A stretch of DNA of 54,077 nt from an uncultured virus (IMG/VR IMGVR_UViG_3300038465_000034) (taxonomy: Duplodnaviria; Heunggongvirae; Uroviricota; Caudoviricetes), in IMG/VR virus record IMGVR_UViG_3300038465_000034; one strand, 5' to 3'. Below, piece by piece: positions 1-44,937 of this stretch (its first letter is position 1; every line of letters starts with the position of its first letter). The position numbers were made by a program, and so were the translations under genes. The notes under the pieces are model-generated. The model saw only the letters and a program-made list of their open reading frames with translations. It searched no databases and was not told the DNA's origin.

Positions 1-350
1 CTCTCCAGCGTAACGCCGTCAGGCTTCACGTAAACGACGCTCTCGCCGTCCACGTTCCACCAGCACTTGATGTCCTGATCGCAGTACCGCTTGCGGTTCT
101 TGTCGTGATGCCGATCTTCTTCCTTGTACCACGGCTGCACCAGAGCGTTGATCGCCGTCTTAAGCTTCCGAGGGAAGGCGTCCCGCTTCGATGGCTTGCA
201 GCGGATGACGAAGAAGTTCGCACCCTTCTCGGGCTCGGTGAACGTGCCGTAGACGCTGAACGCCATGTAGTCGCCGTCTTCGCGCTCTTCCATGCGCCCG
301 ATGCGCCCATCGCGAACTTTCGGGTACAGAATGAGAAATGACTTTTTCAT
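1..350 (-). CDS. hypothetical protein (partial, runs off window start)
   Basis: ATG at 350 overlaps the ligase TGA (ATGA); open frame MKKSFLILYPKVRDGRIG... to the window edge. Confidence 0.6.
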   Translation of the reverse strand, partial: MKKSFLILYPKVRDGRIGRMEEREDGDYMAFSVYGTFTEPEKGANFFVIRCKPSKRDAFPRKLKTAINALVQPWYKEEDRHHDKNRKRYCDQDIKCWWNVDGESVVYVKPDGVTLE

Positions 351-1144
351 AATCTGAAATCCTTATTGACCACGATCTGGCTGAGCAAGCACTTCGCGGG
401 CAGCTTGTCGGTACGGACCCGCTGTATCGAAATCTCCATGATGTGCAGGTTCGCAGTGCCCTTGTTGTATTTCACTTCCACGATATCGCCCTTCCTCACA
501 GGAGGTTTGCCGATGATCGATGCCCCGCAAATCTCGTGCAGGATACCATGGTCGTCGTAGCACGCGAGGCGCACGCTATTTTTGTGTTTCTTGCTCGGCC
601 CTACGACAATGGCCTCCAGCGTCTTCCAAAACTTCACTTTCTTGTGATTTCCAGATGTACCCTCGACATACGCCGCCGTCATGTCCCGCACGATCACGCC
701 CTCGGCCCCCTCTTCAAGCAACTGGATCACCAGTTGAGCCTTCGCTTCATGCGTGCGGGCGGTGTACACGGGAGCGATCAGCTTGCTGTACCCGTCGAAC
801 TCCTGATGGTAACGGGCTTCGCGGTGCTCGTAAGAATCCGCTCCACAAATTTCGTCGCCCAGAACCAGAGCATCGAATAGCTTGAGTGTCTTGTTGCCAA
901 CCAGTTCGCCTGCGATGATGAATTGGGGGAGGGGGTGCTTCAAGAGAGCGGCGATTAGATCGCTTGGTAGACCCTTGGCAGGGTCGCCGTTGCGATTGAA
1001 ATCGTGGATGCCGTTCGAATCCTTGCAGATTGTGCGATACTCGCCGTTAAACTTTTCTTGGTAGCCCCAACGCGGGTCGGGGCAATAGCGAGTTAGGACC
1101 GCTTTGTCTACTTCGACTGGTAGGTCTGCAAGAATCTTAGCCAT
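347..1144 (-). CDS. small ATP-dependent DNA ligase (adenylation + OB domain)
   Basis: Motif I QEKFNGE, III AGEL, IIIa LFDAL, IV EGVIVRD, V KKVKFW, C-terminal OB-like EVKY...RVRTDK; start MAKILAD after GGGAGGGG SD. Confidence 0.8.
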   Translation of the reverse strand: MAKILADLPVEVDKAVLTRYCPDPRWGYQEKFNGEYRTICKDSNGIHDFNRNGDPAKGLPSDLIAALLKHPLPQFIIAGELVGNKTLKLFDALVLGDEICGADSYEHREARYHQEFDGYSKLIAPVYTARTHEAKAQLVIQLLEEGAEGVIVRDMTAAYVEGTSGNHKKVKFWKTLEAIVVGPSKKHKNSVRLACYDDHGILHEICGASIIGKPPVRKGDIVEVKYNKGTANLHIMEISIQRVRTDKLPAKCLLSQIVVNKDFRL

Positions 1145-1160
1145 TTCCCCTCCCAATGTC

Positions 1161-1218
1161 ATTATACCCAAATCGGAAGAGAAAACGATAGGATTTATGC
1201 CTTTGTTTCCAACTACTT
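1161..1218 (-). promoter_or_regulatory. conserved ~58-bp promoter cassette, copy 1
   Basis: AAGTAGTTGGAAACAAAG...TTTGGGTATAAT; similar copies at 3920-3977 and 7644-7700. Confidence 0.7.
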
Positions 1219-1488
1219 GGAAGCCGTTTTTGCTCGTTCTTTCTCCAACGCTGTCATGCAGCCCTTGCAGTTGTCGGGGCTCTTGTCGTTGCCCTGCTCG
1301 AACTCGCTGCCGAACGTCATCCACCGCTTGCAGAGCGACCGTCCGCCTCGGAAGTAATGCCACTTGGGTGAGTTGTAGAGGTAGGTCCAGCCCTCGGTCG
1401 GCGGGGCGAGCGTAGGCTTCGGAAGCAAACGCGCAGGGGTCTCGTGCGTTGGGCCTGCGTAACCCTCGTCGTCTTTGACTTCGTTCAT
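1213..1488 (-). CDS. hypothetical phage protein (WHYF...LC...CxxC)
   Basis: Codirectional ORF ending at the promoter cassette. Confidence 0.55.
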   Translation of the reverse strand: MNEVKDDEGYAGPTHETPARLLPKPTLAPPTEGWTYLYNSPKWHYFRGGRSLCKRWMTFGSEFEQGNDKSPDNCKGCMTALEKERAKTASK

Positions 1489-1627
1489 AGTCGCCAGCCT
1501 CCAGCCAATTTCGTTGTCTAAGCCCATATCTTTGCAAACTCCTCGGGCGTCCAGCCCACCTGATCTTGGAAGTCACAGTCGATGACACGGTGGTTCAACG
1601 GATCAGCGGGAAACAGGAAATATGGGT

Positions 1628-6620: not shown

Positions 6621-7637
6621 TTATTTGCCCGCTGTCGCACCCTTCGACTTCTGCTGTGCCAGCGAAGCCTTCAAGGACGCCATCAGGTCAACGGCAGGTG
6701 CGGTCGCCGTCTTGACCTCAGGCGTTTCCAGAGTCTTGTCGGCAGCCTTCGCCGTAATCAGGGCGCGTGTGGCGGCAAGTGAGCCGTCATACGGGGCGGG
6801 CACGAATGCCGCTTTCTTGGCCACCGCGAGTTCGGCGAACACCGCCGTCATTTCGGGATTCAACTCGGGAGCCGAAAACTTGTCGCAGTTGCGGACTTCG
6901 TACTCCGCGAACAGGTAGTGCATCATCAGGCCGAAGCCCTCGGGACGCACGATGAAATATTGCTCACGTCCGCCTTTCACGCGAACGCCACGTCCCCAGA
7001 GGCCGCTCTCACGCAAGCCAGCGACGAAGTGGTCGTAGCCAACCTTGTCGTTCGGGTTCTTGCTGTCGGAGTCCAGAGAGACGTACTCGGAGTCTTCGAT
7101 GTACTTCGGGTTCACGTCGGTGGGGTCAACCGTCTCGGTGACGATCATGAGCTTGTCGGAGGTCGGACGGTACTGAGCGATCTCTTCGTCGGTCAGGGTG
7201 ACGTACTTGTCCTTGCTGACTTCGATGCCCTTCACGATCTGATCCTTCTCGACGGTCGTGTTGCAGCACGAGCAGGTCGATTTGCCATCCTTGATGCGAC
7301 CCATGCAGGGGACAACAACGTCTACTTCGACGCCATCGACCATCTGTTTGACGGTCTTCGACTTGTGCAGCATGTTGCGCTTGATCGAATCGGCTTCGGC
7401 GGCGACGTAGGTCTTCACGTCGAACTGAATGCTGTCGAAAACGATCATGCGACCAGTGAAGGTCGAGGACTTGGTGGTTTTCTTTTCAGGAGTTTTCGCA
7501 GAGGTAGGGACGGGCAGCTTCGCCACGTTCAGCATGGTCACCAGCTTGTTGCTTAGCTCGGCAACAGTGGAGGACTTATCGGCTGCTGGTGCTTCAATCG
7601 CTTCGACTGCGGGAACCGCTTTCTTTGTTTTCGCCAT
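6621..7637 (-). CDS. ku: Ku (non-homologous end-joining / DNA end-binding protein)
   Basis: FTGRM...VKTYVA...LHK...GRIK...IVKGIEVSKDKYVTLTDEE...MMHYLFAEYEVR and C-terminal VDLMASLKASL of bacterial Ku. Confidence 0.88.
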   Translation of the reverse strand: MAKTKKAVPAVEAIEAPAADKSSTVAELSNKLVTMLNVAKLPVPTSAKTPEKKTTKSSTFTGRMIVFDSIQFDVKTYVAAEADSIKRNMLHKSKTVKQMVDGVEVDVVVPCMGRIKDGKSTCSCCNTTVEKDQIVKGIEVSKDKYVTLTDEEIAQYRPTSDKLMIVTETVDPTDVNPKYIEDSEYVSLDSDSKNPNDKVGYDHFVAGLRESGLWGRGVRVKGGREQYFIVRPEGFGLMMHYLFAEYEVRNCDKFSAPELNPEMTAVFAELAVAKKAAFVPAPYDGSLAATRALITAKAADKTLETPEVKTATAPAVDLMASLKASLAQQKSKGATAGK

Positions 7638-15340: not shown

Positions 15341-16369
15341 TTACCCCTCTACTTTAATACTGGCTTCCCATGTTCTTTTCGCAAGACCATCGAGATAATC
15401 AACCAGTTCGACCCGCTTCCGCCAGTCCTCGGCTATCTCGGGATTACCCACCCGAGCCCCCATGATGGTGCCCGCTATGGCGGTGGTAGTATCGCAATCC
15501 CCCGTGTTGTTCACGCAGTTCAGGACCACATCGCGGTAGGTGCCGTACCGTGCGTTGAAGAACACGGCTGCGGCAACCGCTGGGATAACGGCGAAGTCGT
15601 CCCCATTCCACTTATTAAAGGCACCGATATTGACCCTTTTCCCAATTCCAAAGCAAAAAGCGGCTGCAATATGGCCGATGGCGTACCACGGACTTTGGTC
15701 GGCTTCCCCGGGTCCGAGGCGTATTTGCTGGGGATAGTGGGGCACCACGGTCAAGTCGTCAAACTCGGAGGCGAGCTTTAGAGCGCACCCCATGGCGGTA
15801 CTAAATTCGATCCCCTTTATCGAGGCCGCGACCAGATAGCTGACAATGCCAGCCCCTAGTATGGGCTCCAGATTGTAGTGGGTGTTTACGGCGGTCAGGC
15901 AGCCGATTCTGAAGGCGTAGTCGGGTTGCTGCCAATAGTAGGCCCCCACGACGCCAGAACGCATCGCTGTGCCGTCTCCCTTGGCGTTTAAACCTCCCGA
16001 TTCGAGCCAAGGGACGCCAGCCCCCAATTTACGGACCCCCGCCATGCAGGAGCCTCCGGGTGCCCTGTGGGAGCCCCCGAGGGGGTTATCCCGCCAGACC
16101 ACGAAGTTACGGCTGACGGCCTCCATGAACTGATTTTCATCGATATGCGGAGGATTCGAGAGGAGAGCTTCACCGATACAGCAGAACATCTGGGTGTCGT
16201 CGGTGAACGTATTGTTGGGGAGCAGGTCCTCGATCACCAGAGGCGACCAGACCTTAACCCCGAGGTCATTAAGCACCAATTTGGAGTTGGCGAACTCACG
16301 CGGGTGCCCCAACGCATCGCCTATTGCTTCTCCGAAGATTGCGCCGTATACTTTGTCTTGTTGGGTCAA
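15341..16369 (-). CDS. ADP-ribosylglycohydrolase (ARH/DraG family)
   Basis: GAIFGEAIGDALG, FTDDTQM, GDGTAMR, GDCDTTTAIAGTIMGA motifs. Confidence 0.92.
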   Translation of the reverse strand: MTQQDKVYGAIFGEAIGDALGHPREFANSKLVLNDLGVKVWSPLVIEDLLPNNTFTDDTQMFCCIGEALLSNPPHIDENQFMEAVSRNFVVWRDNPLGGSHRAPGGSCMAGVRKLGAGVPWLESGGLNAKGDGTAMRSGVVGAYYWQQPDYAFRIGCLTAVNTHYNLEPILGAGIVSYLVAASIKGIEFSTAMGCALKLASEFDDLTVVPHYPQQIRLGPGEADQSPWYAIGHIAAAFCFGIGKRVNIGAFNKWNGDDFAVIPAVAAAVFFNARYGTYRDVVLNCVNNTGDCDTTTAIAGTIMGARVGNPEIAEDWRKRVELVDYLDGLAKRTWEASIKVEG

Positions 16370-21187: not shown

Positions 21188-21631
21188 TTACCTGTGTCCA
21201 CCGTGACCACCACCGTGTGATCCGCCGCCATGACCACCGCGTGACCCGCCATAACCACCACCATGACCACCGCGATCACCACGCCCGCGTCCGTCACCAC
21301 GATATCGTCCACCATGACCATTGCCACGATAGAATCCACCACGAGCGCCTTCAAAGCGATGACCGCCCCAACCATGGCCGTAGCCCCAGCCCCACCATGG
21401 GCCGACGCCGAGGAAAATGCCGTTGTAGAAATAGCCCGAGCCATAGAAACCGTATGGCGCACAGGCGTAGGGTTCGTAATCGTAATAGCCGTACTCGCAC
21501 ACGGGCGGTACACCAACTTCGACACCGATGCCGATACGAGGACCAACAACAATCTGAGCCGAGGCAGGAACGGTCGCCACGCCCACAAACATCGCGAATA
21601 CTACGAGGAGAGAAGCAAGAAATTTACGCAT
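21188..21631 (-). CDS. secreted Gly/His/Tyr-rich protein (Acidobacteriota-like)
   Basis: Signal peptide ASA-Q; PPVCEYGYYDYEPYACAPYGFYG..YF.NGIFLGVGPW motif; GGH-rich tail; SD GAGGT. Confidence 0.75.
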   Translation of the reverse strand: MRKFLASLLVVFAMFVGVATVPASAQIVVGPRIGIGVEVGVPPVCEYGYYDYEPYACAPYGFYGSGYFYNGIFLGVGPWWGWGYGHGWGGHRFEGARGGFYRGNGHGGRYRGDGRGRGDRGGHGGGYGGSRGGHGGGSHGGGHGGHR

Positions 21632-21730
21632 TTGATTTGTTACCTCACTTTGAATTAACCCGAGTCATCGGGGAAAGTTCTGACTATAAGATGCGTAGTC
21701 AAGAAATTTTGATGCTTTGTTTACACTACT

Positions 21731-22243
21731 TTACAAATTTTGTTGCGCCTGCTTAATGTCTCGCCGAACCTGCCGCACCGATTGAGCGTGATCCGCGAGA
21801 AAGGTCTTCTTTTCTATACCCAAATGGACGAGGATGATTTCTTTCCCCTTAATGTAATCCTCGGGGAAACAGACTGCCTGCCAATCCGTCTGGTTATACT
21901 GATAGGGACTGATCTGGAATTTGTTCAAGGCAGCCAGCGTCTTTTTATCACGACGACTTGACGTGCACCAGAGCGCCCGTCCGTTGCAGCACAGGATGTA
22001 ATCAAACATGTCCACATTGCCCATGTAGTCTTCGGTTCCGCCGCCTCGGTTCACTTCCGTCCACTTGTAGGGGGCGGTGAATTCTTTGCATTCTTTCAGG
22101 TGCTTCTTGGCGGGATAAAACTCGCTGTCCGTCTGCATCATGCCACAGTTGGAGCACACCAGTTCGACATACTCGAATTTGGAGCCGTCAGTCCGTTTGC
22201 CCGCGACGGGCTTCTTGATGAGGCGGGGGCGATAGGATTTCAT
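21731..22243 (-). CDS. hypothetical protein, leaderless, divergent from tRNA operon 1
   Basis: TGGTATCAT-6 nt-ATG; CSNC motif. Confidence 0.55.
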   Translation of the reverse strand: MKSYRPRLIKKPVAGKRTDGSKFEYVELVCSNCGMMQTDSEFYPAKKHLKECKEFTAPYKWTEVNRGGGTEDYMGNVDMFDYILCCNGRALWCTSSRRDKKTLAALNKFQISPYQYNQTDWQAVCFPEDYIKGKEIILVHLGIEKKTFLADHAQSVRQVRRDIKQAQQNL

Positions 22244-22302
22244 ACCTATATGATACCACGAAAAAATAAATTTTGATTTCCTATCCAAAAAGTCAACTTC
22301 CA

Positions 22303-22322
22303 TGGTATTATGTAGAAGTAAG
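22303..22322 (+). promoter_or_regulatory. promoter of tRNA operon 1
   Basis: TGGTATTATGTAGAAGTAAG (extended -10); 19/20 identical to the operon 2 promoter at 43144-43163. Confidence 0.75.
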
Positions 22323-22330
22323 AGGAAAAC

Positions 22331-22453
22331 ATGACTTTGAAAAACGCCAATTCGAAGACCGCCGCACATAAAATGGTGAAGCGCCCGGTCAGATACCAGC
22401 GGAATAATCGCTGGTTCGGCGCAGGTCTGTTTTCTCAGGGTTGGGATGAGTAG
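22331..22453 (+). CDS. putative attenuator leader peptide of tRNA operon 1 (MTLKNANSKTAAHKMVKRPVRYQRNNRWFGAGLFSQGWDE)
   Basis: SD GAGG before ATG 22331 (second in-frame ATG 22373); K/R/Q/N/W/H codons match downstream tRNAs; overlaps alternative hairpins. Confidence 0.75.
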   Translation: MTLKNANSKTAAHKMVKRPVRYQRNNRWFGAGLFSQGWDE

Positions 22454-22481
22454 CTAGAAACCCACCGAACGAGATCAACAG

Positions 22482-22514
22482 ACCCACCGAAAAACGGTGG
22501 GTTTTTGCGTTTTT
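22482..22514 (+). terminator. attenuator terminator before tRNA-Trp
   Basis: ACCCACCG-AAAAA-CGGTGGGT-TTTTGCGTTTTT. Confidence 0.85.
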
Positions 22515-22526
22515 ATTGGAAAATAT

Positions 22527-22602
22527 AGGGGCGTAAGATAACGGCTAGTCGGTCGGTCTCCAAAACCGTACAGTGTGGGTTCGAATCCCTCCGCCCCTGC
22601 CA
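22527..22602 (+). tRNA. tRNA-Trp(CCA)
   Basis: AGGGGCG/CGCCCCT acceptor, CT-CCA-AA loop, TTCGAAT, encoded CCA. Confidence 0.9.
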
Positions 22603-22642
22603 AAATTTAAGTCGCATCGTGAAGCAAACCGATGTGCAGATT

Positions 22643-22722
22643 GTGGTCGTCGGTAGTGCTGGTATGTACCCGCAGCCTGTGAAGCTGTCGTATCGTGGGT
22701 TCAATTCCCACCGACCACCCCA
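22643..22722 (+). tRNA. tRNA-His(GTG), atypical D-arm, no encoded G-1
   Basis: GTGGTCG/CGACCAC, CT-GTG-AA, C73, CCA. Confidence 0.75.
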
Positions 22723-22796
22723 GTTTAGGGCGAGTTGGCCGTGAGTAAGACCAACTTTTAACACGTCAGAGGACGATGTGCCCCGTTTTTAGATGT

Positions 22797-22873
22797 GGTG
22801 ACTGTCGTTTAGGGGCTAAGACCTCTGACTGTGAATCAGATGATCGTCGGTTCGAATCCGACCAGTCACCCCA
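22797..22873 (+). tRNA. tRNA-His(GTG)
   Basis: G-1 + GTGACTG/CAGTCAC, TCTGA-CT-GTG-AA-TCAGA, C73, CCA. Confidence 0.9.
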
Positions 22874-22959
22874 AGTTTCGGCGGGGCGTTTCGGGTAGTA
22901 AAGCTGTAACCGACTCGTAAAGTCTGGCCCACTGCGAGGTCAGGCCCCAAAGTTTAGGC

Positions 22960-23220
22960 ATGAAGGAGTCAAGATTGAACAGCGGGGATGGAAACTCGCC
23001 CAGCGTGCAGCGGAGAACAGGGTCAGTCGCCCCCTCGGGGCTCGATTGGTCCGATGTGCACATCGAGTTTCCATCCTCAAATGGTAGAACTTTAGCGACG
23101 GTTGTTGGCAGTCCGCTAGACCACGACTGCCCAGTGTGTGAAATGCCGAAAGGCATGGCTTGCAAGTCAGCAACAACGCATTACAACCGCGTGAGGCTGA
23201 TTAGAGTTTTAGTCCCGTAA
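22960..23220 (+). CDS. small Zn-finger protein within tRNA array
   Basis: CPVC...C...H..R motif; stop codon lies inside tRNA-Arg(CCG). Confidence 0.5.
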   Translation: MKESRLNSGDGNSPSVQRRTGSVAPSGLDWSDVHIEFPSSNGRTLATVVGSPLDHDCPVCEMPKGMACKSATTHYNRVRLIRVLVP

Positions 23221-23287
23221 CTCAGCGGAATAGAGTACTCGCCTCCGAAGCGAAAAGTCGTGGGTTCGAATCCCACCGGGACTACCA
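23211..23287 (+). tRNA. tRNA-Arg(CCG)
   Basis: AGTCCCG/CGGGACT, CT-CCG-AA, TTCGAAT, CCA. Confidence 0.9.
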
Positions 23288-23339
23288 AGTAGAGGGCTGG
23301 TGCGCTCCCTCCATAACATGCGTACCAAATTTTAGATGT

Positions 23340-23414
23340 GCCTCTGTCGTTCAACGGACAGGATGCGAAGCTACGAACTTCACGATAGTGGTTCGATTCC
23401 ACTCGGGGGCACCA
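23340..23414 (+). tRNA. tRNA-Arg(ACG)
   Basis: GCCTCTG/CGGGGGC, CT-ACG-AA, TTCGATT, CCA. Confidence 0.88.
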
Positions 23415-23421
23415 AGGTTAG

Positions 23422-23512
23422 AAACGTCGAGGTCGGCTGTAGCTCAGCGGTAGAGCAGCCCGCAGGGGAAGGTCGGTGGTTCGAATCCACCCAGCCATAC
23501 GCCGAGACGTTT
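23422..23512 (+). ncRNA. anticodon-less tRNA-like RNA with extended closing stem
   Basis: Perfect D-arm (GCTC-AGCGGTA-GAGC) and T-arm (GGTGG-TTCGAAT-CCACC); anticodon arm reduced to CCC-GCAG-GGG; no CCA. Confidence 0.65.
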
Positions 23513-23578
23513 TTAGGGCAGAGGATAGACAGCGACGGCTGGAACGACGTGAAATCCCTCAAGCCCTCCGGATATTTT

Positions 23579-23654
23579 GGTCCCATCGTACAATGGAACA
23601 GGACACGTGGCTTCGAACCACGAAATGTAGGTTCAAGTCCTACTGGGACCACCA
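23579..23654 (+). tRNA. tRNA-Arg(TCG)
   Basis: GGTCCCA/TGGGACC, CGTGG-CT-TCG-AA-CCACG, CCA. Confidence 0.9.
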
Positions 23655-23661
23655 AAGTTTT

Positions 23662-23747
23662 GCAGGTGTGTCGGCAACGGACGCCACGGGCGCTACGAAC
23701 GCCTAGCCCTTCGGGGAATGCAGGTTCGAGTCCTGTCACTTGCTCCA
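23662..23747 (+). tRNA. tRNA with ACG anticodon and long variable arm (Arg?)
   Basis: GCAGGTG/CACTTGC, CT-ACG-AA, V-arm CCC-TTCG-GGG, U73, CCA. Confidence 0.75.
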
Positions 23748-23759
23748 GTTGGGGGTCGT

Positions 23760-24062
23760 ATGTATAAAGCGTCAAAGATGGTGTTACTTACGGGTCGCGA
23801 TGGGACTGTGCAGTACGGCCAGCCGCGCCACATACCGATGACTGGCTTTGGTGACTACGACATCGTTCCGACCGAAGAGGTTGAGCAGGACGAGGACCCG
23901 GCGGTAGTCGCGGCACGGCACGAGAGGACGATGGCGAAGATCGCCGAGCAGCTTAAGTTCGAAGAGGAATATCGGCTTGAGCGAGGAAGTAAGGCGGGTA
24001 CCACGGTCCACGAATCGGGTTGCCCCTGTGGGTTCTGCAAGGCGGGTTTTACGACAGCATAA
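23760..24062 (+). CDS. hypothetical protein (C-terminal H...CPCGFC)
   Basis: ORF between tRNAs with GGGGG SD. Confidence 0.55.
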   Translation: MYKASKMVLLTGRDGTVQYGQPRHIPMTGFGDYDIVPTEEVEQDEDPAVVAARHERTMAKIAEQLKFEEEYRLERGSKAGTTVHESGCPCGFCKAGFTTA

Positions 24063-24073
24063 ATTTTGAATTT

Positions 24074-24149
24074 AGGGCGTTAGTTCAGTTGGTAGAACGT
24101 CGGCCTCTGAAGCCGAATGTCGGTGGTTCAAACCCATCACGCCCTGCCA
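24074..24149 (+). tRNA. tRNA-Gln(CTG)
   Basis: AGGGCGT/ACGCCCT, TCGGC-CT-CTG-AA-GCCGA, G73, CCA. Confidence 0.85.
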
Positions 24150-24159
24150 AGTTTGATGT

Positions 24160-24237
24160 TCCAGTGTAGGACAATTGGTAGTCTGCTCGGCTGTTACCCG
24201 ATGTATGATGGGGGTTCGAGTCCCTCCGCTGGAGCCA
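24160..24237 (+). tRNA. tRNA-Asn(GTT)
   Basis: TCCAGTG/CGCTGGA, CT-GTT-AC, G73, CCA. Confidence 0.85.
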
Positions 24238-24249
24238 GTATTAAGTAGT

Positions 24250-24639
24250 ATGGGTGCTAACGATAAGAAAAAGCAACAGTTGGGAATGGCAATTGGCACG
24301 GCGAGTGCTCGATTGCGAAAGATGATCCTCTTTGGTTTGGTGCGGCGTTGTGGACTCGATACCTGTTTCCGCTGCGGGAAACAAATCGGTACTGTGGAAG
24401 AATTTTCCATCGAGCATAAGAAAGCTTGGCTCGATGTTTCGATAGACCTGTTCTGGGATTTGGATAACATTGCGTTTTCACACCTAGTATGTAATGTGGC
24501 TACCGCAAGAAAACCACATAAAAAGTATTTCACTGCCGCAGCGTTACGAGAAGCGACGAATAAACGAATCGCTGGTTATGGGCGTAAGGCGTACACGAAA
24601 GAACGACGACGGCAGAAATACTTAAGAACAGGTCATTAA
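24250..24639 (+). CDS. HNH-like endonuclease (paralog of 42225-42752)
   Basis: CFRCG...SIEHKK.W...NIAFSHLVCN. Confidence 0.75.
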   Translation: MGANDKKKQQLGMAIGTASARLRKMILFGLVRRCGLDTCFRCGKQIGTVEEFSIEHKKAWLDVSIDLFWDLDNIAFSHLVCNVATARKPHKKYFTAAALREATNKRIAGYGRKAYTKERRRQKYLRTGH

Positions 24640-24649
24640 GTTTTAATGT

Positions 24650-24724
24650 TCACTCGTAGCTCAGCGTTAGAGCGTTCGCCTGTTAAGCGAAGGGTCGCAG
24701 GTTAGAATCCTGCCGAGTGAGCCA
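24650..24724 (+). tRNA. tRNA-Asn(GTT)
   Basis: TCACTCG/CGAGTGA, TTCGC-CT-GTT-AA-GCGAA, variant T-loop TTAGAAT, CCA. Confidence 0.85.
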
Positions 24725-24975
24725 AGTTTGGATCAGGAGGTCGGCGGTCTCGTACGCAGTGGCAGGTCAGCCAATTAAGTCTCGACGTGGGGTTTGTCAG
24801 GGTCACCCATAAAGCGGTGCTCCTCATGAAGCGGGCAGGAATATCGTGATCGAGCAGGGTTTCGACGGCGACATGGTACGTGCAGCCGCATTCGAGGACG
24901 GTGTAGAAGCATTCCTCGTCGCCCTCGCGGGCCGTGTAGGCTCCAGCTTGCTTCGTACTAATGAATACTGAAGTT

Positions 24976-25053
24976 GAGCGGGTAATTCAACTGGACTAGA
25001 AGCCCAGCCTCTTAAGCTGGAGAATGTGGGTTCAAATCCCACCCTGCTCACCA
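24976..25053 (+). tRNA. tRNA-Lys(CTT)
   Basis: GAGCGGG/CCTGCTC, CCAGC-CT-CTT-AA-GCTGG, CCA. Confidence 0.88.
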
Positions 25054-25074
25054 AATTTTGTGGTATTATGAGCT

Positions 25075-25473
25075 ATGGATAGAAAGGCGCAAGGTGTAAA
25101 GTCGGTCGGCATCATTATGAGTCGGCTGATTGGGATGGGCAAAACCGTCCTGTTGCCAATTGGTGATTGTGAACGTTACGATTTGGTGGTCGATGAAGGC
25201 ACTAAGTTCGTGCGTATTCAGTGCAAGACTGGACGATTAGTCAAGGGCACCCTTCGCTTCAAAGCAGCGAGCACTAACCTTGAGCATGGGAAGTGGACGC
25301 AGAAGGATTATAGAGGACAGGCGGACGTGTTCGGTGTTTACTGTCGGGAGCTTGACAAAGTTTATCTTGTTCCTGTCTCTGAAGTTGGAAGGCGGGAAGG
25401 GTCCTTGAGGATCGAGCCCACTCGGACAACCAACAATGTTCGTTGGGCGAAAGATTTTGAAATGCGGGCGTAG
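25075..25473 (+). CDS. PD-(D/E)XK endonuclease (group I intron-associated/I-Ssp6803I-like family)
   Basis: P.GD.ERYDLVVD...RIQCKTG...Y...AD.F.VY......YLVP. Confidence 0.82.
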   Translation: MDRKAQGVKSVGIIMSRLIGMGKTVLLPIGDCERYDLVVDEGTKFVRIQCKTGRLVKGTLRFKAASTNLEHGKWTQKDYRGQADVFGVYCRELDKVYLVPVSEVGRREGSLRIEPTRTTNNVRWAKDFEMRA

Positions 25474-25539
25474 CTCAGTTGGTAGAGCACTCGCCTCTTA
25501 AGCGAAGGGTCGGCGGTTCGATCCCGTCCGCCCGCACCA
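25464..25539 (+). tRNA. tRNA-Lys(CTT)
   Basis: GCGGGCG/CGCCCGC, CT-CTT-AA, CCA. Confidence 0.92.
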
Positions 25540-25545
25540 AGTTTA

Positions 25546-25595
25546 GACGTACCGCAGGGCGTTTCACGTAGGTTCGAATCCTACCGCGCCGACCA
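25546..25595 (+). pseudogene. 3' half tRNA remnant (T-arm + acceptor strand + CCA)
   Basis: GTAGG-TTCGAAT-CCTAC-CGCGCCG-A-CCA with no matching 5' half. Confidence 0.55.
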
Positions 25596-25624
25596 AATTT
25601 TGAGTTTTGTGGTATTGTAAATAG

Positions 25625-26101
25625 ATGGACGCTTTAGACCATCTGTTGGATACTGGCGAATTGCATTGGACAGCCCAAGACATGGCGCTCGACGATTTTG
25701 TCGATAGCGACAATTGGTTCTTGAATCGGGACGATGTACCCGAACCGACTTTGAATGAGTTGAAGTTCCCGCTGACGGTGTATCGGGCGGTGAAGCTCAC
25801 GAACGGCATGGTAGACCTAAAGACCGAGGGGGTGGGGATTTACTGGACGTATAGCCCTCGGGTCGCGGAACATTGGATGTTCCCCACGAGGCCGGTGTGG
25901 ATACTTCGAGCAACAGCGGAGTACGATCAGGTAGATTGGGGGAAGACCCGAGACCTGAACACAAAGTTTGAAGTAGAACGAGAGATTAGGCTTCTGGCAG
26001 GAGCTAGGCTGCGGATCAATGCGTACAAGCGCAGACACAGCACAAGCTTCCTGACGTTCTCGGAAGATTGGGAACATGACGGACTGGAAGCAATAGCGTA
26101 A
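25625..26101 (+). CDS. putative ADP-ribosyltransferase-fold protein
   Basis: LTVYRAV...GIYWT.S..VA..W...E.EREI.L resembles the R-S-ExE ART arrangement. Confidence 0.5.
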   Translation: MDALDHLLDTGELHWTAQDMALDDFVDSDNWFLNRDDVPEPTLNELKFPLTVYRAVKLTNGMVDLKTEGVGIYWTYSPRVAEHWMFPTRPVWILRATAEYDQVDWGKTRDLNTKFEVEREIRLLAGARLRINAYKRRHSTSFLTFSEDWEHDGLEAIA

Positions 26102-26105
26102 GTTT

Positions 26106-26181
26106 GGATCGGTAGCTCAATTGGCAGAGCAACAGACTCTTAATCTGAAGGTTGTGGGTTCAATTCCCACCCGGTTCACCA
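26106..26181 (+). tRNA. tRNA-Lys(CTT)
   Basis: GGATCGG/CCGGTTC, CT-CTT-AA, CCA. Confidence 0.9.
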
Positions 26182-26187
26182 ATTTCT

Positions 26188-26388
26188 ATGCGTAGGACGT
26201 GCCCCAGTTGTCTCGGCGATGACGCGGCAAAGCGCGAAGGTCGGAACTTTGACCCGCTCTACGGCACCGTCGAAATCTACTGCACGTACTGTGGGTCCTT
26301 CGTGGACATGCTCTGGCGCTGGCAGACGAGCGACAGCGTGTGGCAGAAGTTCAGGGATCAAGCAAAGTTCGGGTTAGCTCAAGGTTAG
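26188..26388 (+). CDS. small Zn-ribbon protein
   Basis: CPSC...CTYC. Confidence 0.5.
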   Translation: MRRTCPSCLGDDAAKREGRNFDPLYGTVEIYCTYCGSFVDMLWRWQTSDSVWQKFRDQAKFGLAQG

Positions 26389-26444
26389 GCAGAGCAGCCG
26401 CGCAAGCGGAAGACTGGCGGGTTCGAATCCCACCCCCTAAACCA
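26368..26444 (+). ncRNA. anticodon-less tRNA-like RNA (GCAA tetraloop in place of the anticodon loop)
   Basis: GCTC...GAGC D-arm, CCGC-GCAA-GCGG, GGG-TTCGAAT-CCC, weak acceptor, ACCA. Confidence 0.6.
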
Positions 26445-26553
26445 TTACGGGTGTCAAGAATAGGGTGACAGACGGCACCAACCGTTGCGGGTTCAACGAC
26501 CGCCCCGTGATTTTGACTTTTAGAACGCTAGATAGAAGGGAATACAGTGATTT

Positions 26554-27144
26554 ATGCATGACACTCTCGTACTCGACATGAACTGGACGCCTGTAGGCTT
26601 CTGCACGTGGCAGAACGCCGTAAAGCTCATCTGGGAAGAGCGGGCTCACGTCGTCAAGGAAGACGAAGCGGGCAAGGTTTTAAGGTCGCCCTCGTTCTCC
26701 ATGGGGATGCCAAGGGTCATCGTGGTCCGTAACGCTTGGACAAAGCGCCGTCGCCAAGCTGTGCCTTTCAGCCGCCGCAACATTGCGGTAAGGGACAACA
26801 GTGAGTGCCAATACACGGGACGTTGGGAAAGGGATGGCGGGCCTCGTTACTGGGTGCCGTGTGGCGAAGTGCTGCAAACGCACCAGTACACGCTGGATCA
26901 CGTTACCCCACGTTCACAGGGCGGTGTGAGTTCTTGGACGAACCTCGTTCTCGCTTGCATTTACTGCAACAAGGCAAAGGCGGGTATGACGCCCAAGCAA
27001 GCTGGTATGCAACTTCGGCATAAGCCTGTTGAACCGAAGGTAAATGACCCGAAGTACAACTTCAAGCTCCACATTCGGAAGCTGCGTCCCGAATGGAAAG
27101 AGTGGACTAGCTGGCTGTACTGGAACGCGATTCTTGACGCATAG
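26554..27144 (+). CDS. HNH endonuclease (McrA-like/HNH_5 type)
   Basis: LVLD..W.P.....W..A...PRVI...FSRRNI..RD...CQY...TLDHV.PRSQGG.SSW.NLV.AC..CN..K...TP..AGM.L. Confidence 0.88.
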   Translation: MHDTLVLDMNWTPVGFCTWQNAVKLIWEERAHVVKEDEAGKVLRSPSFSMGMPRVIVVRNAWTKRRRQAVPFSRRNIAVRDNSECQYTGRWERDGGPRYWVPCGEVLQTHQYTLDHVTPRSQGGVSSWTNLVLACIYCNKAKAGMTPKQAGMQLRHKPVEPKVNDPKYNFKLHIRKLRPEWKEWTSWLYWNAILDA

Positions 27145-27269
27145 GACATTCCCGTACGGTAACATTCGAGTGTTATCGTGCGGGAAATCCTGAAATGTTA
27201 CCGAACGGGAATGATTGGATGCACGATAGGTTGCCTGAGAAGGAACGTTCCGTGCACAGGGTATAATTC

Positions 27270-27521
27270 ATGGCAGGTATACCGCATATCCGAGGCTGCT
27301 GGTTTTGTCTGCTGAATAAGTTGGTGGTGATCTTCGGCTTTGGTGCGATTGGGATTGTTTGCGTCTGTGCCATGGTCTGGGATGCGGCCCACCACCACTA
27401 CCTGACGGCGGGCAAGGATTTCGTTACCTACCTCATAGCTTTCATGGCTATCAGCGTGGTGCCGAAGCTGATAGATGGCTGGTCGGGGCTTCTGAACAGG
27501 GTGCTGCCTGATGGTAAGTGA
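27270..27521 (+). CDS. small membrane protein
   Basis: Two hydrophobic segments; TATAAT upstream. Confidence 0.5.
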   Translation: MAGIPHIRGCWFCLLNKLVVIFGFGAIGIVCVCAMVWDAAHHHYLTAGKDFVTYLIAFMAISVVPKLIDGWSGLLNRVLPDGK

Positions 27522-27702
27522 TCTTCAGGCACTATCGAAAGCATTAACAGAAGGTGCCGCTTGCTACGACAGGCAGGCGGACAAGGAATTGACCGACCTC
27601 ATCATGCGGGATCAAGTGAGGATCGAAGAAGAATTGAATCGAGACGGACAGACAATCGTCACGTTTCGTGGGTGTCCTTACAAGATAGCCCGAAAAGTTT
27701 GA
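27511..27702 (+). CDS. hypothetical protein
   Basis: Stop TGA overlaps the first bases of tRNA-Arg(CCT). Confidence 0.5.
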   Translation: MVSDLQALSKALTEGAACYDRQADKELTDLIMRDQVRIEEELNRDGQTIVTFRGCPYKIARKV

Positions 27703-27786
27703 CCTCGTAGTCTAGCGGACGAAGGCACCTGTTTCCTAAACAGGAGGCGAAAGCCATCGCAGGTTCGAATCCTGCCGAGGTCACCA
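27701..27786 (+). tRNA. tRNA-Arg(CCT) with long variable arm
   Basis: GACCTCG/CGAGGTC, CCTGT-TT-CCT-AA-ACAGG, V-arm GGC-GAAA-GCC, A73, CCA. Confidence 0.85.
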
Positions 27787-28353
27787 GTTTGTGGTTTTAG
27801 GATAACAATGTTCGATGTAAGCTTTAACGACGTGCTAGACGAATTTCTCGCTCAGTTGACGGGCGAGGACGGTATTAGGTTGCAGGAGGCTAAAGATGCC
27901 CGCAACAACGAGGACGTGGCGCTAAAAGAGATTGTAGTACCATGAAGCTGAGGGAATTCACCATCATCGCGTTGCCATTTCCTCAATCGGAGGCAACCTC
28001 GACGTACACGGAGTACGCGGTCGATGATGAGGCGGCTTTGAAACAGTTTCAAGCTCGATACCCGCTATGGCGGGTCAAGGAAGTAACGGAACGATGAATC
28101 GAACGTTAAAAAACGTTCTACTTGTCGGACTGACGCTAGTCGTCCCCGGTGCGGGGCTGGCATGGCTCATAAAAATCGCCAAAAGCGATCCTGACAAAGA
28201 TTTTAAGCGGTATGTTGAACATAGGTTCAACAAGATGAAAGCAGAAGAACAACCATGGCTCCAATGAACCTCAACCCGACCGCAACGCCGTGGCCTATCA
28301 CGGCAACGCCGATCCTCGTCGCCAGACGAAAACGCTAACCACAATTCGCGTGT

Positions 28354-28436
28354 GGGCGTTTAGTCGAGGCACTCCTCTAAAGTGTTATCCGTAAGCGGAA
28401 CTGAAAATGCAGGTTCGAATCCTGTAGCGCCCTCCA
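28354..28436 (+). ncRNA. aberrant tRNA-like RNA (no D-arm; TCT-containing loop)
   Basis: GGGCGTT/AGCGCCC acceptor, perfect T-arm, T-CCA end; internal hairpins GCACT-CCTCTAA-AGTGT and TCCG-TAAG-CGGA. Confidence 0.6.
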
Positions 28437-28442
28437 AATTTT

Positions 28443-28535
28443 CCCAGTGTAATTCAACGGAAAATCGCCGAAAGGTGAAGAAGCCCGGGCCTTTACCCCG
28501 GAGAATGGGGGTTCGAATCCCTCCAACTGGGACCA
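28443..28535 (+). tRNA. atypical tRNA-Lys(TTT)-like with hairpin inserted in the D-loop
   Basis: TCGCC-GAAA-GGTGA in D-loop; CCGGG-CCTTTAC-CCCGG; bulged acceptor; ACCA. Confidence 0.6.
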
Positions 28536-28536
28536 T

Positions 28537-28611
28537 GGGAGCGTAGCTTAATGGTAAAGCTACTGCCTTTTAAGCAGATAGATGGGGGTTCGACTCCCTC
28601 CGCTCCCACCA
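28537..28611 (+). tRNA. tRNA-Lys(TTT)
   Basis: GGGAGCG/CGCTCCC, CT-TTT-AA, CCA. Confidence 0.92.
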
Positions 28612-30394
28612 ATTACTTTCTGATATTCGGAGGAAGGTCCTCAAGAAGATAGGTCATGAGATGCTGGCCGCACAGGGCGTTACCTTTCACGCTAGTCACT
28701 GCCGTGCGAGCACCGTCGATTGCATACTGCATGGATTCATCGTTTAGGGGTCTGTCAACCAGATTTTCAAGAATGCATTGAGCGCATTTCATTGTCCAAC
28801 CTCCATTAGTCCAACCCTTGTGCAGTCTCAAATGCTTTTGGCTTCGGTTCTTTCAGTTCTATGAGTTTTTGTTGTACCGTCTGATTTTACCTATGATGGT
28901 CGATGGAAGATTGCGGAGCAACGCTATAATACTGCCCGTGAACATCAGCACCAACCCACCGCCGATCAACTGATTCTTGAATAAATCAGTGACCGTGGAT
29001 ATATGCTGTGGAGTTGCCGCTACGGTTTGTGGCGAGACTATCATTCTCTCCCAAGTGTAACATAGGCAACGAGTAAGAAACAAGTCTCCATCGTGGGACA
29101 CTCAAAAGGAAAGATAATCCAACGGTGCAGGCGAGGGTATGGAATGTAGCTCGGGACAAAGAACTGCATTAGCTCCAGTGTTTGTGGGTCGTAAACATGA
29201 CCGACCTTGGAAATTACGTCCATACCTATCGTCTTGCTAGTTTCTTAAGGGTAGCCTCGATTTGGCGGCAGGTGCAAGTGGGGATGTTATCTTCCAGATG
29301 ACCGCAGCAATTCGGATTGGCATCCTCGGCATCCTCGGCAGCTTCGAGCAGCGGACCTTCTTCCAGCATGGCTTGAAGGGACTCTAGGCGGCGGATGGCT
29401 TTCTTGAACTCACTCTTGAGGTAGCCCGCACGTCCGAAGCCGTCCCCACGAATCTCATCCATGGCTTTCCGCATGTAATGCACGTCAGCCCGAATGCGAC
29501 CGATCATATTGCTATACATTTGCACGCTCCGCAAAGCCGTCCCATACACGCACGCAGCGCCAGCACAATTCCCTGACCTTGATAGGTAATGGACGCTTTG
29601 CAAGCATAGCCTGCCACACCAGTAATATGTCGCGGGCAAGCACAAACCCCATGCACTCGAATATCTTTGCACCACACATGAAGCAGCGCCTCGGATGAGC
29701 ATCGAGAGCCATGGTGTGCATCAGTTCGACTGGCGCTGTTGCCAGACCTCGATGTAGGGGATGAGGATGGTCTCATCGCCGTCGAATTGATCCCAAACCA
29801 GTTCCTCTATATCCGCGTCGTCATCCACTAGGCTGACGGCGACTTGTTCGGGATCGGCCTGACTCTCGTCGTAGCCGTTATCAGCGGCTTGGTCGAGTGC
29901 CGCGCTCACCAGTGCTTGGATTTCGTTTTCGTCCAGTTGATCCATTTGAAGACCTCCGTTAGATGCCTGTCTTTCCACACCTGCCACAAATGAAACCGTT
30001 CGCGGAGCCAGTTCCATGAAGATGCCAGTGCGGTCTTACTTGACCACTTCCCCAGCCCAGTGCGCGGGCAATTTCCGTACCCAACTGGTCTCCTGCACTG
30101 GCATACCAGTGATACCATTCTTTTTGATGCCCGAATACCCGGCAAAGCCAATCCCAAGTAGGGCCGTCCCGCCATCTCCGTTTGTACGGCCATGATCCAG
30201 TTCCTATCTTAAGCCTTGGCATTAGACCCACGCTCCGCAATCGTCGCAGGACGAGTCCATGCCGACTGGATGTGTCTTCTTGTGCGGGCAGCAATTGATA
30301 TTGAAGACGAAATTGTGCAACTCGTCCTCAGTGAGACGATTCACCTTCGCCACGGCCAAACGAAGCAGTCGCTCTTTGGTCATTTTCTTGGGCA

Positions 30395-31477: not shown

Positions 31478-32419
31478 TTAGTCCTCCGCTCGGATTGCCA
31501 AATCGATCATGGCGAGCTTAACAACAGACTCGTCACGCCATTCTTCCCACGCTGGGTGCCCATCCGCTCGCTCGTCAGCCCGTAGGTGACCCGCAATCCA
31601 GCGGCAGGCAAGCTCAACCGCCCGAGCCAGAATGCGGTTGGTAGCGTCCCCCTCGTGTCCCCAAACTTTGAGGTAGAGTTTGGTCAAGTACCGCGAAACA
31701 GCCTCGCGATCAGTTTGATCGGGTAGGGAGGATTCTGCCTGTGCCCTATCCAGATCGGCAAACAAGGTGTCCGTCATATCCTTGAGGAATGCCTGATCGT
31801 ACTTGCCCTCTCGAACGGCAATCAGCAGGCTCTTGTTCGGACGCGGGTAGGTGATCTCACCAGCCTGCATGAGTTCAATTCCCTCGCCGAGGAGCCGCAT
31901 AACATGCATGGCAGCCTTGGTATCGAAGCCGAACTTCTCCTCAAGCTCGGGACGTTGACCGTGCTTGCCCTGCCCGCGTTCACCCATGTACCGCTGACGC
32001 TGGGCCATGGCAAATCCCCTGAATTGCTCCGCACACGCCTTGGATAGAAAAATTCTCCGCATGTTCCGTACATCGTCCCACAGATCAGTGACATCCAGCG
32101 TGTTCTCGGCGAAGAGGTACGACAGACAAGTCGGATTCCCGCCCGAGGCGAGCTTCGCCCACTTCCGCAGCGAGTAGAAGCAGATGTCCATGTCGCCGGG
32201 AACATTCCGCTTCGTATCGCCCGCAGACGACCACACGTAGTGGGGGTAGTCCTTGAGCCCGATGACCATCTCTGGCGGTTCGACGTAAACGCCATACCAG
32301 TCGTCATCGTGCTTGTTCACAAGTTGCGCCCCATGGAGATCGGACCCACCCCTGAACAGATGGATCAGGTTGCTGGTGTAAGGGAACTTGTTCGCCTTGA
32401 GTTGTTCAAGTAGGTCCAT
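31478..32419 (-). CDS. nucleotidyltransferase, DNA polymerase beta superfamily (RlaP/Nuc-transf-like)
   Basis: GGSDLHG...DDDWYGVY, D...YSLRKW..L...GNP...LF, FDTKAAMHVMRLL. Confidence 0.85.
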   Translation of the reverse strand: MDLLEQLKANKFPYTSNLIHLFRGGSDLHGAQLVNKHDDDWYGVYVEPPEMVIGLKDYPHYVWSSAGDTKRNVPGDMDICFYSLRKWAKLASGGNPTCLSYLFAENTLDVTDLWDDVRNMRRIFLSKACAEQFRGFAMAQRQRYMGERGQGKHGQRPELEEKFGFDTKAAMHVMRLLGEGIELMQAGEITYPRPNKSLLIAVREGKYDQAFLKDMTDTLFADLDRAQAESSLPDQTDREAVSRYLTKLYLKVWGHEGDATNRILARAVELACRWIAGHLRADERADGHPAWEEWRDESVVKLAMIDLAIRAED

Positions 32420-42970: not shown

Positions 42971-43002
42971 AAAAACACAAACGCCGCCCTTGTTTGGCGG
43001 CG
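42971..43002 (-). terminator. attenuator terminator before tRNA-Ser(GCT)
   Basis: CGCCGCC-AAACAAG-GGCGGCG-TTTGTGTTTTT on the minus strand. Confidence 0.82.
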
Positions 43003-43036
43003 GCTCGGTGAATCTAATCTGCTTGTTTTCAGATAC

Positions 43037-43108
43037 TTACAAGCACACACCGATGCCGTCGCCCCGTGAGGAGCTACTCGATAACGATGATATGCTGATA
43101 GCGATCAT
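43037..43108 (-). CDS. putative Ser-rich attenuator leader peptide (MIAISISSLSSSSSRGDGIGVCL)
   Basis: 8 Ser codons in codons 5-14 plus ATA and TTA; 3' part is complementary to the terminator 5' arm. Confidence 0.8.
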   Translation of the reverse strand: MIAISISSLSSSSSRGDGIGVCL

Positions 43109-43143
43109 TTTGTGTGTCCGGTCTTACCTTGTTGCGGTAAATC

Positions 43144-43163
43144 CTTACTTCTATATAATACCA
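43144..43163 (-). promoter_or_regulatory. promoter of tRNA operon 2
   Basis: TGGTATTATATAGAAGTAAG, near-identical to 22303-22322. Confidence 0.75.
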
Positions 43164-44937
43164 CGGAAGTCGAGAAAACAGCTAGGAATTTGCAAAGAAA
43201 TTTTTCAGCGCCTCGCCAACTCTTCATCCAGCGGTAATCGCTGCATCATGGCGAGTGCGACATCCTGTTCTTTTGGGGTCAGTGTTTCCCAGTGAGCGAG
43301 GTAGTAGTCGCAAACTTCTGTGGCGATGGCGTTGCGCTCACGGCGAGCGACCTTTATGTCTTCGAGAGGAGCGTCCAACTCTTTAAGAGCTTCGAGCCTG
43401 TAGATGACGCCCCACCAACGGTAATAGAACGGTTCGGGGATGTGGGGTTTCATATCAGGACCAGATCGTGTTCTTTTCCTTGAGGCCGCACTGCTCACAG
43501 TGGCGTACCTGATGAGTCACGTAATGGGCGAAGCAGCCCGCCTTCGTCCACGGATACCTGACGGCAAACCTCTGCCCATCTACCCACGGTCCCCACGTGT
43601 GCACCCAATGCCATTCGTGCATCTTCCTGCGAACAAGTTCAGCGGGGCGCATGAAACCGTAGTAGGTCACCCACCACACGGCGAGACGAAGCGGTGCCTC
43701 TTTCGGCGTGCTGCGATTGCTCGGATGTGAGGGGCAGATGACTTGCTTCTCTGCTCCGTCGCACATTCCCGTGTTGATAAGTTCACAAAGGCAACTTTGT
43801 CTCATTCTTCCTCTCCGTCGTCACTCAAGAAGTCGATGGCATCTCGAACGTCGCCGCCCTCGTTCTCTATGTGCCAGTACACGTCTTTGAGCCGCTGGGT
43901 GTTGGCATAGAGCCAATCGAGCCTCTGGCTGTCGCTCATCATACTTTCAGCCCTCTGTACTTCTCAGGCCGCTGTGCGGGATCAGGATGGTTCCAGTTTA
44001 TCAATTCGTCCCACGTCTCGGGAGCGGGAACTTTTGGATCGTACTTCGGATTCGCACAACAGCAGGACGGACATTCCTCGATCCATGGATTCAACCCGCA
44101 GTCCTTATCGTGGCACTTGTGATCGCATTTGAATCCCACCGTCAGCAAATCCCCCTCGATTGACTTCCGAGAAAACTCTCGGGTTTCGTGTTCCCAATCC
44201 GCGAACCTGTTGAAATCCCTCATCAGAACATCGATTCTGACGGCGGGATGCCGCCCTTTGGAACTAAGATGATGTGATCCTTCGTCCCCTCTTTGCCACG
44301 GGTCGGCAGCGTGCTGTGGTGCCACAAATAGCGACACGCAAAGTCATGACCTTCCTTACTACCGAAGCCGCAATAGAAACAGCGAAACGTCGCGCCCGAC
44401 ACAACGCAGGGCTCGGCCTCAATATAAACGGGGAGCCAGCCGCCGAGCTTCTCCTGCTTCTCACGTCTCACGGTATTTGGGTGTGCGTTCATGGTTTCGC
44501 TTCCTCGCAGTCATTGACATACACGTGCCGCCAGCCCTTCGGGGCGGTTTCTTTCATGAGCATAAACATGCGTTGACGCTCCCCAATCGGCTTCTTGCAC
44601 TGTTCGCAGGTGAAGACGCCATCCTTCGACCACGAAGTCGCCGACGAGGGAGTGGTGATGAAAGCCCCGGGCTCTTCCTGAATCGTAAAGTCGATGTTTC
44701 GCAGATTGGGACGGGCTGTGCGTGCCGTAGTTTTCTTCGTCTTCATTTTGTATTCTCCTGTTTCAGATTTGCTTTCATAGTCCCCCCGCCAACCTACTTA
44801 GATTGATCGCGGCTCGGATCAATTCGTACAGACCAAACCCCACCAACATCACCCAGAAGAAACCGATCTGGGTGTGGTGCACACCCGTCTCACGGTCGCC
44901 CCAGCAGAGTCCCTGCGTGCTAATCCAGAACTGCCAC

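Follow-up and report, generated by a model that had tools for sequence, protein, structure and literature searches.

A candidate multivalent leader-peptide attenuator ahead of a phage tRNA operon

Phage tRNAs are now regarded as answers to tRNA-targeting immunity, and, to our knowledge, the way in which phages time and dose tRNAs of their own is largely unknown. The locus described here raises the question of whether a phage may set the output of a tRNA operon by the pace at which ribosomes read the codons of those same tRNAs. It lies in a stretch of 54,077 nucleotides of uncultured Caudoviricetes DNA (IMG/VR record IMGVR_UViG_3300038465_000034), referred to below in its whole length as the window. 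This 54-kb window looks like part of a large phage, its genes lie mostly on the minus strand, and no close DNA relative was found among deposited phages. A Pfam run on 60 ORFs of the window recognised a NAD-dependent DNA ligase, Ku, an ADP-ribosylglycohydrolase and an RlaP RNA-repair family protein; the repair genes, including that of an ATP-dependent ligase-like protein, would fit a phage facing nucleic-acid-targeting host defence. The features discussed are collected in Table 1.

Table 1. Positions of the promoter, leader, RNA-structure, tRNA and neighbouring protein features in the window
Feature	Position	Strand	Description
Promoter box	22298-22322	+	Extended -10 at 22303-22311; transcription start inferred at ~22318
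Second copy of 25-base box	43144-43168	-	
9-base core sites	5469, 11721, 13177, 21125, 22250, 22303, 25061, 41529, 43155, 49234		
Internal copy of promoter box	25061-25069	+	5 bases before PD-(D/E)XK ORF
Shine-Dalgarno site	22320-22325	+	Six bases, purine-rich, 5 bases before ATG; read from sequence
Leader ORF	22331-22453	+	40 codons, ATG start, TAG stop
Sensor stretch, codons 4-28	22340-22414	+	15 of the 17 Lys/Asn/His/Arg/Gln/Trp codons
Protector/pause hairpin	22381-22422	+	8-pair stem 22395-22415 and 5-pair extension 22381-85/22418-22
Antiterminator 5' strand (region 2)	22415-22436	+	Inside ORF, codons 29-36
Inner 5-pair hairpin	22438-22463	+	Closes antiterminator loop, encloses stop codon; in MFE fold
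Antiterminator 3' strand (region 3)	22471-22491	+	Covers 8 of 10 positions of terminator 5' arm
Intrinsic terminator	22480-22514	+	10-pair stem 22480-22504 (6 G-C), 5-base loop, T run; -16.2 kcal/mol
tRNA array	22527-28611	+	15 canonical genes (ARAGORN), 2 tRNA-like RNAs, endonuclease ORFs interspersed
tRNA-like RNA	23433-23499	+	42.5 bits, degenerate anticodon arm; missed by default ARAGORN
tRNA-like RNA ("TCT-like")	28354-28433	+	29.2 bits (cut-off 29), long extra arm; missed by default ARAGORN
HNH and PD-(D/E)XK endonuclease ORFs between tRNA genes	24205-24639, 25075-25473, 26554-27144	+	Homing-endonuclease-like inserts
PD-(D/E)XK endonuclease ORF	25075-25473	+	Own promoter box 5 bases upstream
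Sister module	42982-43168	-	Box 43144-43168, leader 43108-43037, terminator 43002-42982
Sister array	42958-41579	-	Ser x4, Leu TAA, Ile TAT
ATP-dependent ligase-like protein	347-1588	-	
Ku	6621-7637	-	
ADP-ribosylglycohydrolase	15341-16369	-	
RlaP RNA-repair family protein	31478-32419	-	

The tRNA array, its leader and the sister leader

A plus-strand island at 22.3-28.6 kb carries the tRNA genes, beginning with tRNA-Trp at 22527. According to ARAGORN the array comprises Trp CCA, His GTG x2, Arg CCG/ACG/TCG/ACG/CCT, Gln CTG, Asn GTT x2, Lys CTT x3 and Lys TTT, and no isotype other than these six was found by the same program in 22527-28611. The anticodon of the tRNA-like RNA at 28354-28433 is ambiguous, being Arg CCG in relaxed ARAGORN and, by eye, also readable as TCT, with C at position 33. 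Many tRNA-Trp genes of bacterial type in soil, peat and freshwater metagenomes share their 3' 25 bases with the phage tRNA-Trp, which may hint at the host lineage.

Transcription towards the array appears to start at a 25-base promoter box present in exactly two copies in the window (0.00 expected from 100 shuffles). Its 9-base extended -10 core recurs ten times (0.88 expected), and many genes of the window are leaderless by their look because in four of these ten copies the ATG of an ORF of 132-708 aa lies at +5/+6; the pattern suggests that leaderless mRNAs are widespread in the window. Both tRNA-array leaders are exceptions, with longer 5' regions after the box. The core copy inside the array stands next to an endonuclease ORF, and therefore the last three Lys tRNAs, Arg CCT and the TCT-like RNA are possibly transcribed independently of the leader; these distal tRNAs may thus have a promoter of their own and escape leader control. 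Searched for in viral contigs, the promoter-box pattern gave 0 matches.

The leader ORF encodes a basic peptide in which the six amino acids of the array account for 17 of the 39 codons after the start (8.8 expected, p 0.0028). The distribution of these sensor-set codons is uneven: they make up 15 of the 27 codons at positions 2-28 (6.1 expected, p 2e-4), against 2/12 at positions 29-40, codon 28 (Trp) being the last sensor codon of the upstream stretch. For 16 of the 17, a cognate or wobble anticodon can be found by eye in the array; the AGA codon has no canonical array tRNA, its sole candidate being the doubtful RNA at 28354-28433. Enrichment over the whole ORF is modest, equal richness being found in 11 of 339 small ATG ORFs of the window (~3%).

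The second copy of the box belongs to a sister module that precedes a Ser/Leu/Ile array on the minus strand. Its leader has 23 codons, and 14 of the 22 after the start are Ser, Leu or Ile (p 5.8e-6) with a single codon from the other array's set, while the 40-codon leader holds four Ser/Leu/Ile codons. Set out as a 2x2 table of leaders and arrays (17/4 versus 1/14), the match is reciprocal (Fisher p 2e-5).

An initial annotation of this DNA had proposed a promoter, a Shine-Dalgarno site and an ORF at 22331-22453, an array limited to Trp, His, Arg, Gln, Asn and Lys with the anticodons given above, and leader codons matched to it; each signal is found at the place named, and both the isotype limits (15 genes in ARAGORN) and the codon match, alone and against the sister leader, are borne out by the counts. 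A further Arg-type RNA with anticodon TCT survives as a tRNA-like hit for which TCT is possible by eye, but its score barely passes the cut-off and relaxed ARAGORN prefers Arg CCG. The picture of a 6-kb operon under one leader was overstated in view of the internal promoter box at 25061-25069.

Terminator, antiterminator and ribosome position

The terminator tops the list of terminator-like sites in 21500-29500, and about 13 bases (22515-22526) separate its end from tRNA-Trp. This gap showed no promoter-like site, and a space of this size leaves no room for another promoter. With cmscan at E up to 1, no Rfam leader, T-box or other cis-regulatory family was detected in 21500-29500, the output consisting of tRNA-type hits and weak chance hits at tRNA genes only.

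The two strands of the proposed antiterminator form 17 pairs, all of them standard (-18.9 kcal/mol). The best duplex of the leader (22331-22465) with 22471-22491 reaches -23.0 kcal/mol, compared with -12.2 (sd 2.4) in shuffled sequences, of which 0/1000 attain it; when a rule sets the arm (the 5' arm of the terminator and the 10 bases upstream of it), blind to the earlier choice, 1/500 shuffles do so, and against the bare 10-base terminator arm the duplex is not significant (334/1000 shuffles). The leader region folds better than shuffles (z -4.19). The protector has an energy of -11.1 kcal/mol, or -19.4 with its extension, is present in the MFE folds and covers the last sensor codons. A pairing of region 2 with the Shine-Dalgarno region as "region 1" was tried and rejected as not beyond chance (89/1000 shuffles).

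The antiterminator and the terminator had both been drawn in the initial annotation, and both hold, the former in that its 17 standard pairs are reached by 0/1000 and 1/500 shuffles, the latter as 10 pairs followed by a T run at -16.2 kcal/mol. The protector of that annotation is a real hairpin lying over the control codons, but shares only 22415-22422 with the antiterminator; the overlap does not involve its 8-pair core, and the outer 5-pair helix is the sole part of the antiterminator with which it competes.

In MFE folds of a transcript growing from 22320, the antiterminator core is present when the end stands at 22492, and it gives way to the terminator when the transcript also includes the 3' arm; the core alone leaves a 5-pair terminator remnant. 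Folding at equilibrium yields no clean terminated state for an untranslated leader: the MFE fold depends on the assumed 5' end, giving the full terminator from 22320 and, from 22317, 12 antiterminator pairs with 5 terminator pairs kept, with no ribosome. The effect of a ribosome was scanned in a purely thermodynamic model, with a footprint of 28 bases and with the terminator 3' arm not yet made. In these constrained co-transcriptional folds 5-9 of the 10 bases of the terminator 5' arm are paired upstream when the A-site is at codons 2-27, 6/10 when it is at codon 28, and 0-5/10 from codon 29 to the stop. Repeated on full-length transcripts at equilibrium, the scan carries no information, since in most modules the local terminator prevails.

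Homologues and other leader-terminator modules

A pattern based on tRNA-Trp gave 7 loci in viral contigs. A true homologue of the leader module is carried by a 455,708-base viral contig with 64 tRNA hits (G003); a 105-kb fragment (G004) is identical to it over the 6-kb locus compared, and two further leader patterns, run on viral contigs, recovered only these two again. The G003 leader has 31 codons behind the same kind of promoter box and ends in TAA, as against TAG in the window. A 21-base block and the region-2 core are identical in both, and the upper stem of the terminator is of other sequence with pairing kept. The tRNA order in G003 is nearly that of the window (Trp, Gln, His x2, Arg x3, Asn x2, Lys x2, then Arg CCT, Gln, Lys TTT x2). 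The sensor part is 9 codons shorter than that of the window and different in sequence. A codon-tRNA correspondence in homologous leaders, named earlier as a point on which the proposal could fail, was looked at here: 11 of the 18 codons at positions 2-19 belong to the sensor set (p 4.9e-4; p 0.096 for the whole leader). In the growing-transcript fold of G003 the antiterminator is present before the terminator 3' arm is made; the duplex test is weak (30/500 shuffles) and the ribosome scan less clean.

The protein collection contains an identical 40-aa leader peptide and one 37-aa metagenome homologue, whose sensor part is variable and still rich in the sensor set; no family is recorded there for the homologues of the peptide. 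A three-way alignment of the peptides gives a block at codons 24-35 with 11 of 12 positions invariant and a sensor part that varies in length and sequence. The architecture or the composition is kept in one independent DNA homologue (G003, G004 being identical) and one known as a peptide only.

Several other searches returned no further homologue. A region-2 pattern matched 13 viral loci and 120 loci in genomes; only 2/133, namely G003 and G004, are followed by a tRNA at a distance of up to 600 bases, and the rest are due to chance. Among viral contigs, four stretches matching the 170-aa neighbour protein yielded one relative (G001), which was rejected as a source of the leader: its tRNA region is inverted and cut by the contig end, and it yielded no leader. 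A metagenome scan with the 3' 25-mer of tRNA-Trp gave 120 loci, all of them single bacterial-type tRNA-Trp genes, with a phage-type array after Trp in none; at least three tRNAs occur in 8/120, in each case ahead of Trp or on the opposite strand. Possible amber suppressors, tRNAs with a CTA anticodon that ARAGORN labels Pyl, occur in both G003 (G003:16800-27200, reverse-complement positions 1149 and 1272) and G001 (L005 9362-9436).

Modules of a leader and a terminator before tRNA arrays number 11 in all, from the window, G003, G002, G005 and G006. In G003 further ones stand before Ser/Leu, Ala/Val/Gly/Cys/Asp/Glu and Tyr/Leu arrays; three come from G002, a 132-kb contig that looks unrelated, and a single one from each of G005 and G006. 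The terminator rule flagged 12 sites, two of which were dropped (one inside a tRNA gene, one without an ORF), and did not call the terminator of the G003 Ser leader, which was left out of the duplex test and both ribosome scans. The match of a leader to its own array has p < 0.02 in 7 of the 11 modules, p 0.07-0.10 in three and p 0.72 in one. The G002 Asn/Gln/Gly leader has 3/24 own-array codons and would match only if its array continued across the contig ends, which was not assumed, and the G003 Tyr/Leu leader has 8/27 Arg/Trp codons versus 6/27 of its own set. In the duplex test, at most 12/500 shuffles reach the observed energy in 4 of 10 modules and 17-33/500 in three, with no signal in three; the sister module, at 0/500, gives a stronger result than the 40-codon leader. 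A step in the ribosome scan of the codon-29 type is also seen in the sister, G003 Ala/Val/Gly and G005 leaders, and is less clear in the other modules. The invariant block of the 40-codon leader is absent from the sister leader.

The 13-mer at the end of the leader (22437-22449) recurs once in 279 loci, at the end of the G003 Ala/Val/Gly leader (L274 2076-2088), where it gives the same last residues before the stop. Common to the leaders of two arrays, it suggests paralogous modules whose sensor codons have been exchanged. Two G002 modules (L009, L010) share a stretch of ~20 bases with a -35-like hexamer between the terminator and the first tRNA; no -10 fits, and the stretch could be a processing site.

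Readings of the module and known systems

These observations are best accommodated by a multivalent leader-peptide attenuator, in which ribosomes mediate the termination of transcription and which gates at least the proximal part of the phage tRNA operon. We hold this to be fairly probable on the evidence of sequence and folding. The proposal is partly supported, having survived every in-silico test run: the reciprocal codon match, the non-random antiterminator, the position of the sensor codons and the homologue that keeps the design. Host RNA polymerase would start at the extended -10 promoter and a ribosome would load on the 40-codon leader. With Lys, Asn, His, Arg, Gln and Trp aminoacyl-tRNAs plentiful, the ribosome would cover region 2 up to the stop codon in the antiterminator loop, region 3 would pair with region 4 as the terminator, and transcription would end at ~22506-22514. 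A stall at any of the 15 sensor codons (codons 4-28) would melt the protector and leave region 2 free to pair with region 3 once the latter is transcribed, which would block the terminator and permit read-through into tRNA-Trp and the array. The phage thus probably makes the array tRNAs when ribosomes read their codons slowly. Candidate causes of a low supply are a host anticodon nuclease, host shut-off and a codon-usage mismatch; OR-gate behaviour, with induction by anticodon nucleases or by starvation, would be expected. Because the output tRNAs read the sensor codons, the arrangement would amount to supply-and-demand feedback for six tRNA families.

The same layout could, however, merely set a low basal level through a constitutively leaky terminator, or report overall ribosome traffic as a general sensor of coupling, so that the identity of the leader codons would be irrelevant. 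The near degeneracy of the equilibrium folds between the two states, the modest whole-ORF enrichment, the weak or absent own-array match in 4 of 11 modules and a G003 Tyr/Leu leader as rich in Arg/Trp (8/27) as in its own set (6/27) are all in keeping with such an explanation. It does not account for a codon composition that is reciprocal between the two leaders of the window (Fisher p 2e-5), for the concentration of sensor-set codons upstream of region 2 (15/27 versus 2/12) or for a sensor part that diverges among three homologues with its composition kept, and we judge it unlikely. Pure coincidence, a chance ORF beside a terminator, might be entertained given that ~3% of the small ORFs of the window are equally rich in the six amino acids, but the promoter box is common to the leader of the other array (0 copies expected), conservation of the ORF extends to a relative and to the protein collection, and the antiterminator exceeds shuffles, so that chance is scarcely credible as an explanation.

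The invariance of codons 24-35 at 11 of 12 positions in three homologues can also be turned towards the peptide itself. It would agree, as would the basic character of the peptide, with a small protein gene that has its own terminator, the 40-aa product being functional and the tRNAs arising from read-through or from elsewhere. Yet the invariant block falls where the protector hairpin and region 2 lie, so that a constraint on the RNA explains its conservation; the roughly 13 bases between the T run and tRNA-Trp (22515-22526) hold no promoter-like site, the same layout precedes other arrays with quite different peptides, and the peptide's homologues have no recorded family. We consider a protein-coding role of this kind improbable. 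The block at codons 24-35, together with the 13-base end motif shared with the leader of another array, might instead signify arrest by the nascent peptide, in which the conserved C-terminal portion would itself stall the ribosome and codon composition would be secondary. In the folds, however, arrest of the ribosome at region 2 or beyond it would favour the terminator, no known arrest motif was recognised in the leader, and the sister leader is without the invariant block, all of which makes arrest very improbable.

Beyond the single attenuator, it is tempting to suppose that each isotype-sorted tRNA block of the phage has a ribosome-sensing switch of its own, that these switches are paralogous and re-programmable, and that they jointly act as an inducible counter-defence; this wider proposal is tentative and, on present evidence, rather doubtful. 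The switches would share a promoter type, this leader and one G003 leader also having their 13-base 3' end in common, and would have their sensor codons fitted to each block. A host tRNA-cutting nuclease or host shut-off would deplete, for example, tRNA-Lys or tRNA-Arg, the ribosome would stall on the matching leader, and replacement tRNAs would be made. PMC10264068, PMC11464382 and PMC12409363 present phage tRNAs as a counter to tRNA-targeting defences, and PrrC is said in the first of these to cut tRNA-Lys. Counter-defence of the type set out in the text of PMC10264068 provides a reason for a phage to carry Lys and other tRNAs; the main text of that paper has 0 occurrences of attenuat-, leader, terminator or promoter and does not treat the switching of tRNA genes.

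If the attenuator is real, the phage gauges decoding speed at chosen codons and makes tRNAs on demand, the classic mechanism of amino-acid operons is extended to the translation machinery itself, and a directly testable sensor of tRNA depletion is at hand, in a module short enough (~200 bases) to suit a reporter. It would also explain why the tRNA arrays of large phages are sorted by amino acid. The set of switches, if true, would represent a control logic not described for any tRNA gene. No published account of leader-peptide control of tRNA genes was found in the open-access text of 8.1 million papers and 0.36 million preprints; old work on E. coli tRNA-Phe genes reportedly discussed an attenuator-like upstream sequence.

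Known regulators resemble the proposed module in different respects. T-box riboswitches likewise let the state of a specific tRNA set the choice between terminator and antiterminator, but they bind uncharged tRNA directly and need no translation. The pheST attenuator of E. coli, with its pheM leader, is similar in that leader-peptide attenuation governs a translation gene, the product of which makes more of the sensed aminoacyl-tRNA available; this attenuator is chromosomal, has a single amino-acid input and controls an aminoacyl-tRNA synthetase, whereas the phage module would control tRNAs and have six inputs. Closest in logic are the multivalent enterobacterial leader-peptide attenuators of ilvGMEDA (Ile/Val/Leu codons) and thr (Thr/Ile codons), with which it shares a short translated leader whose codons specify several amino acids, antiterminator and terminator hairpins that exclude one another, and a stop codon at a position where a ribosome that has not stalled blocks the antiterminator; in all of them a shortage of any one input should derepress. 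In contrast to these, the phage-encoded module would have six amino-acid inputs and regulate tRNAs rather than biosynthetic enzymes, so that its product feeds back on the decoding of the leader.
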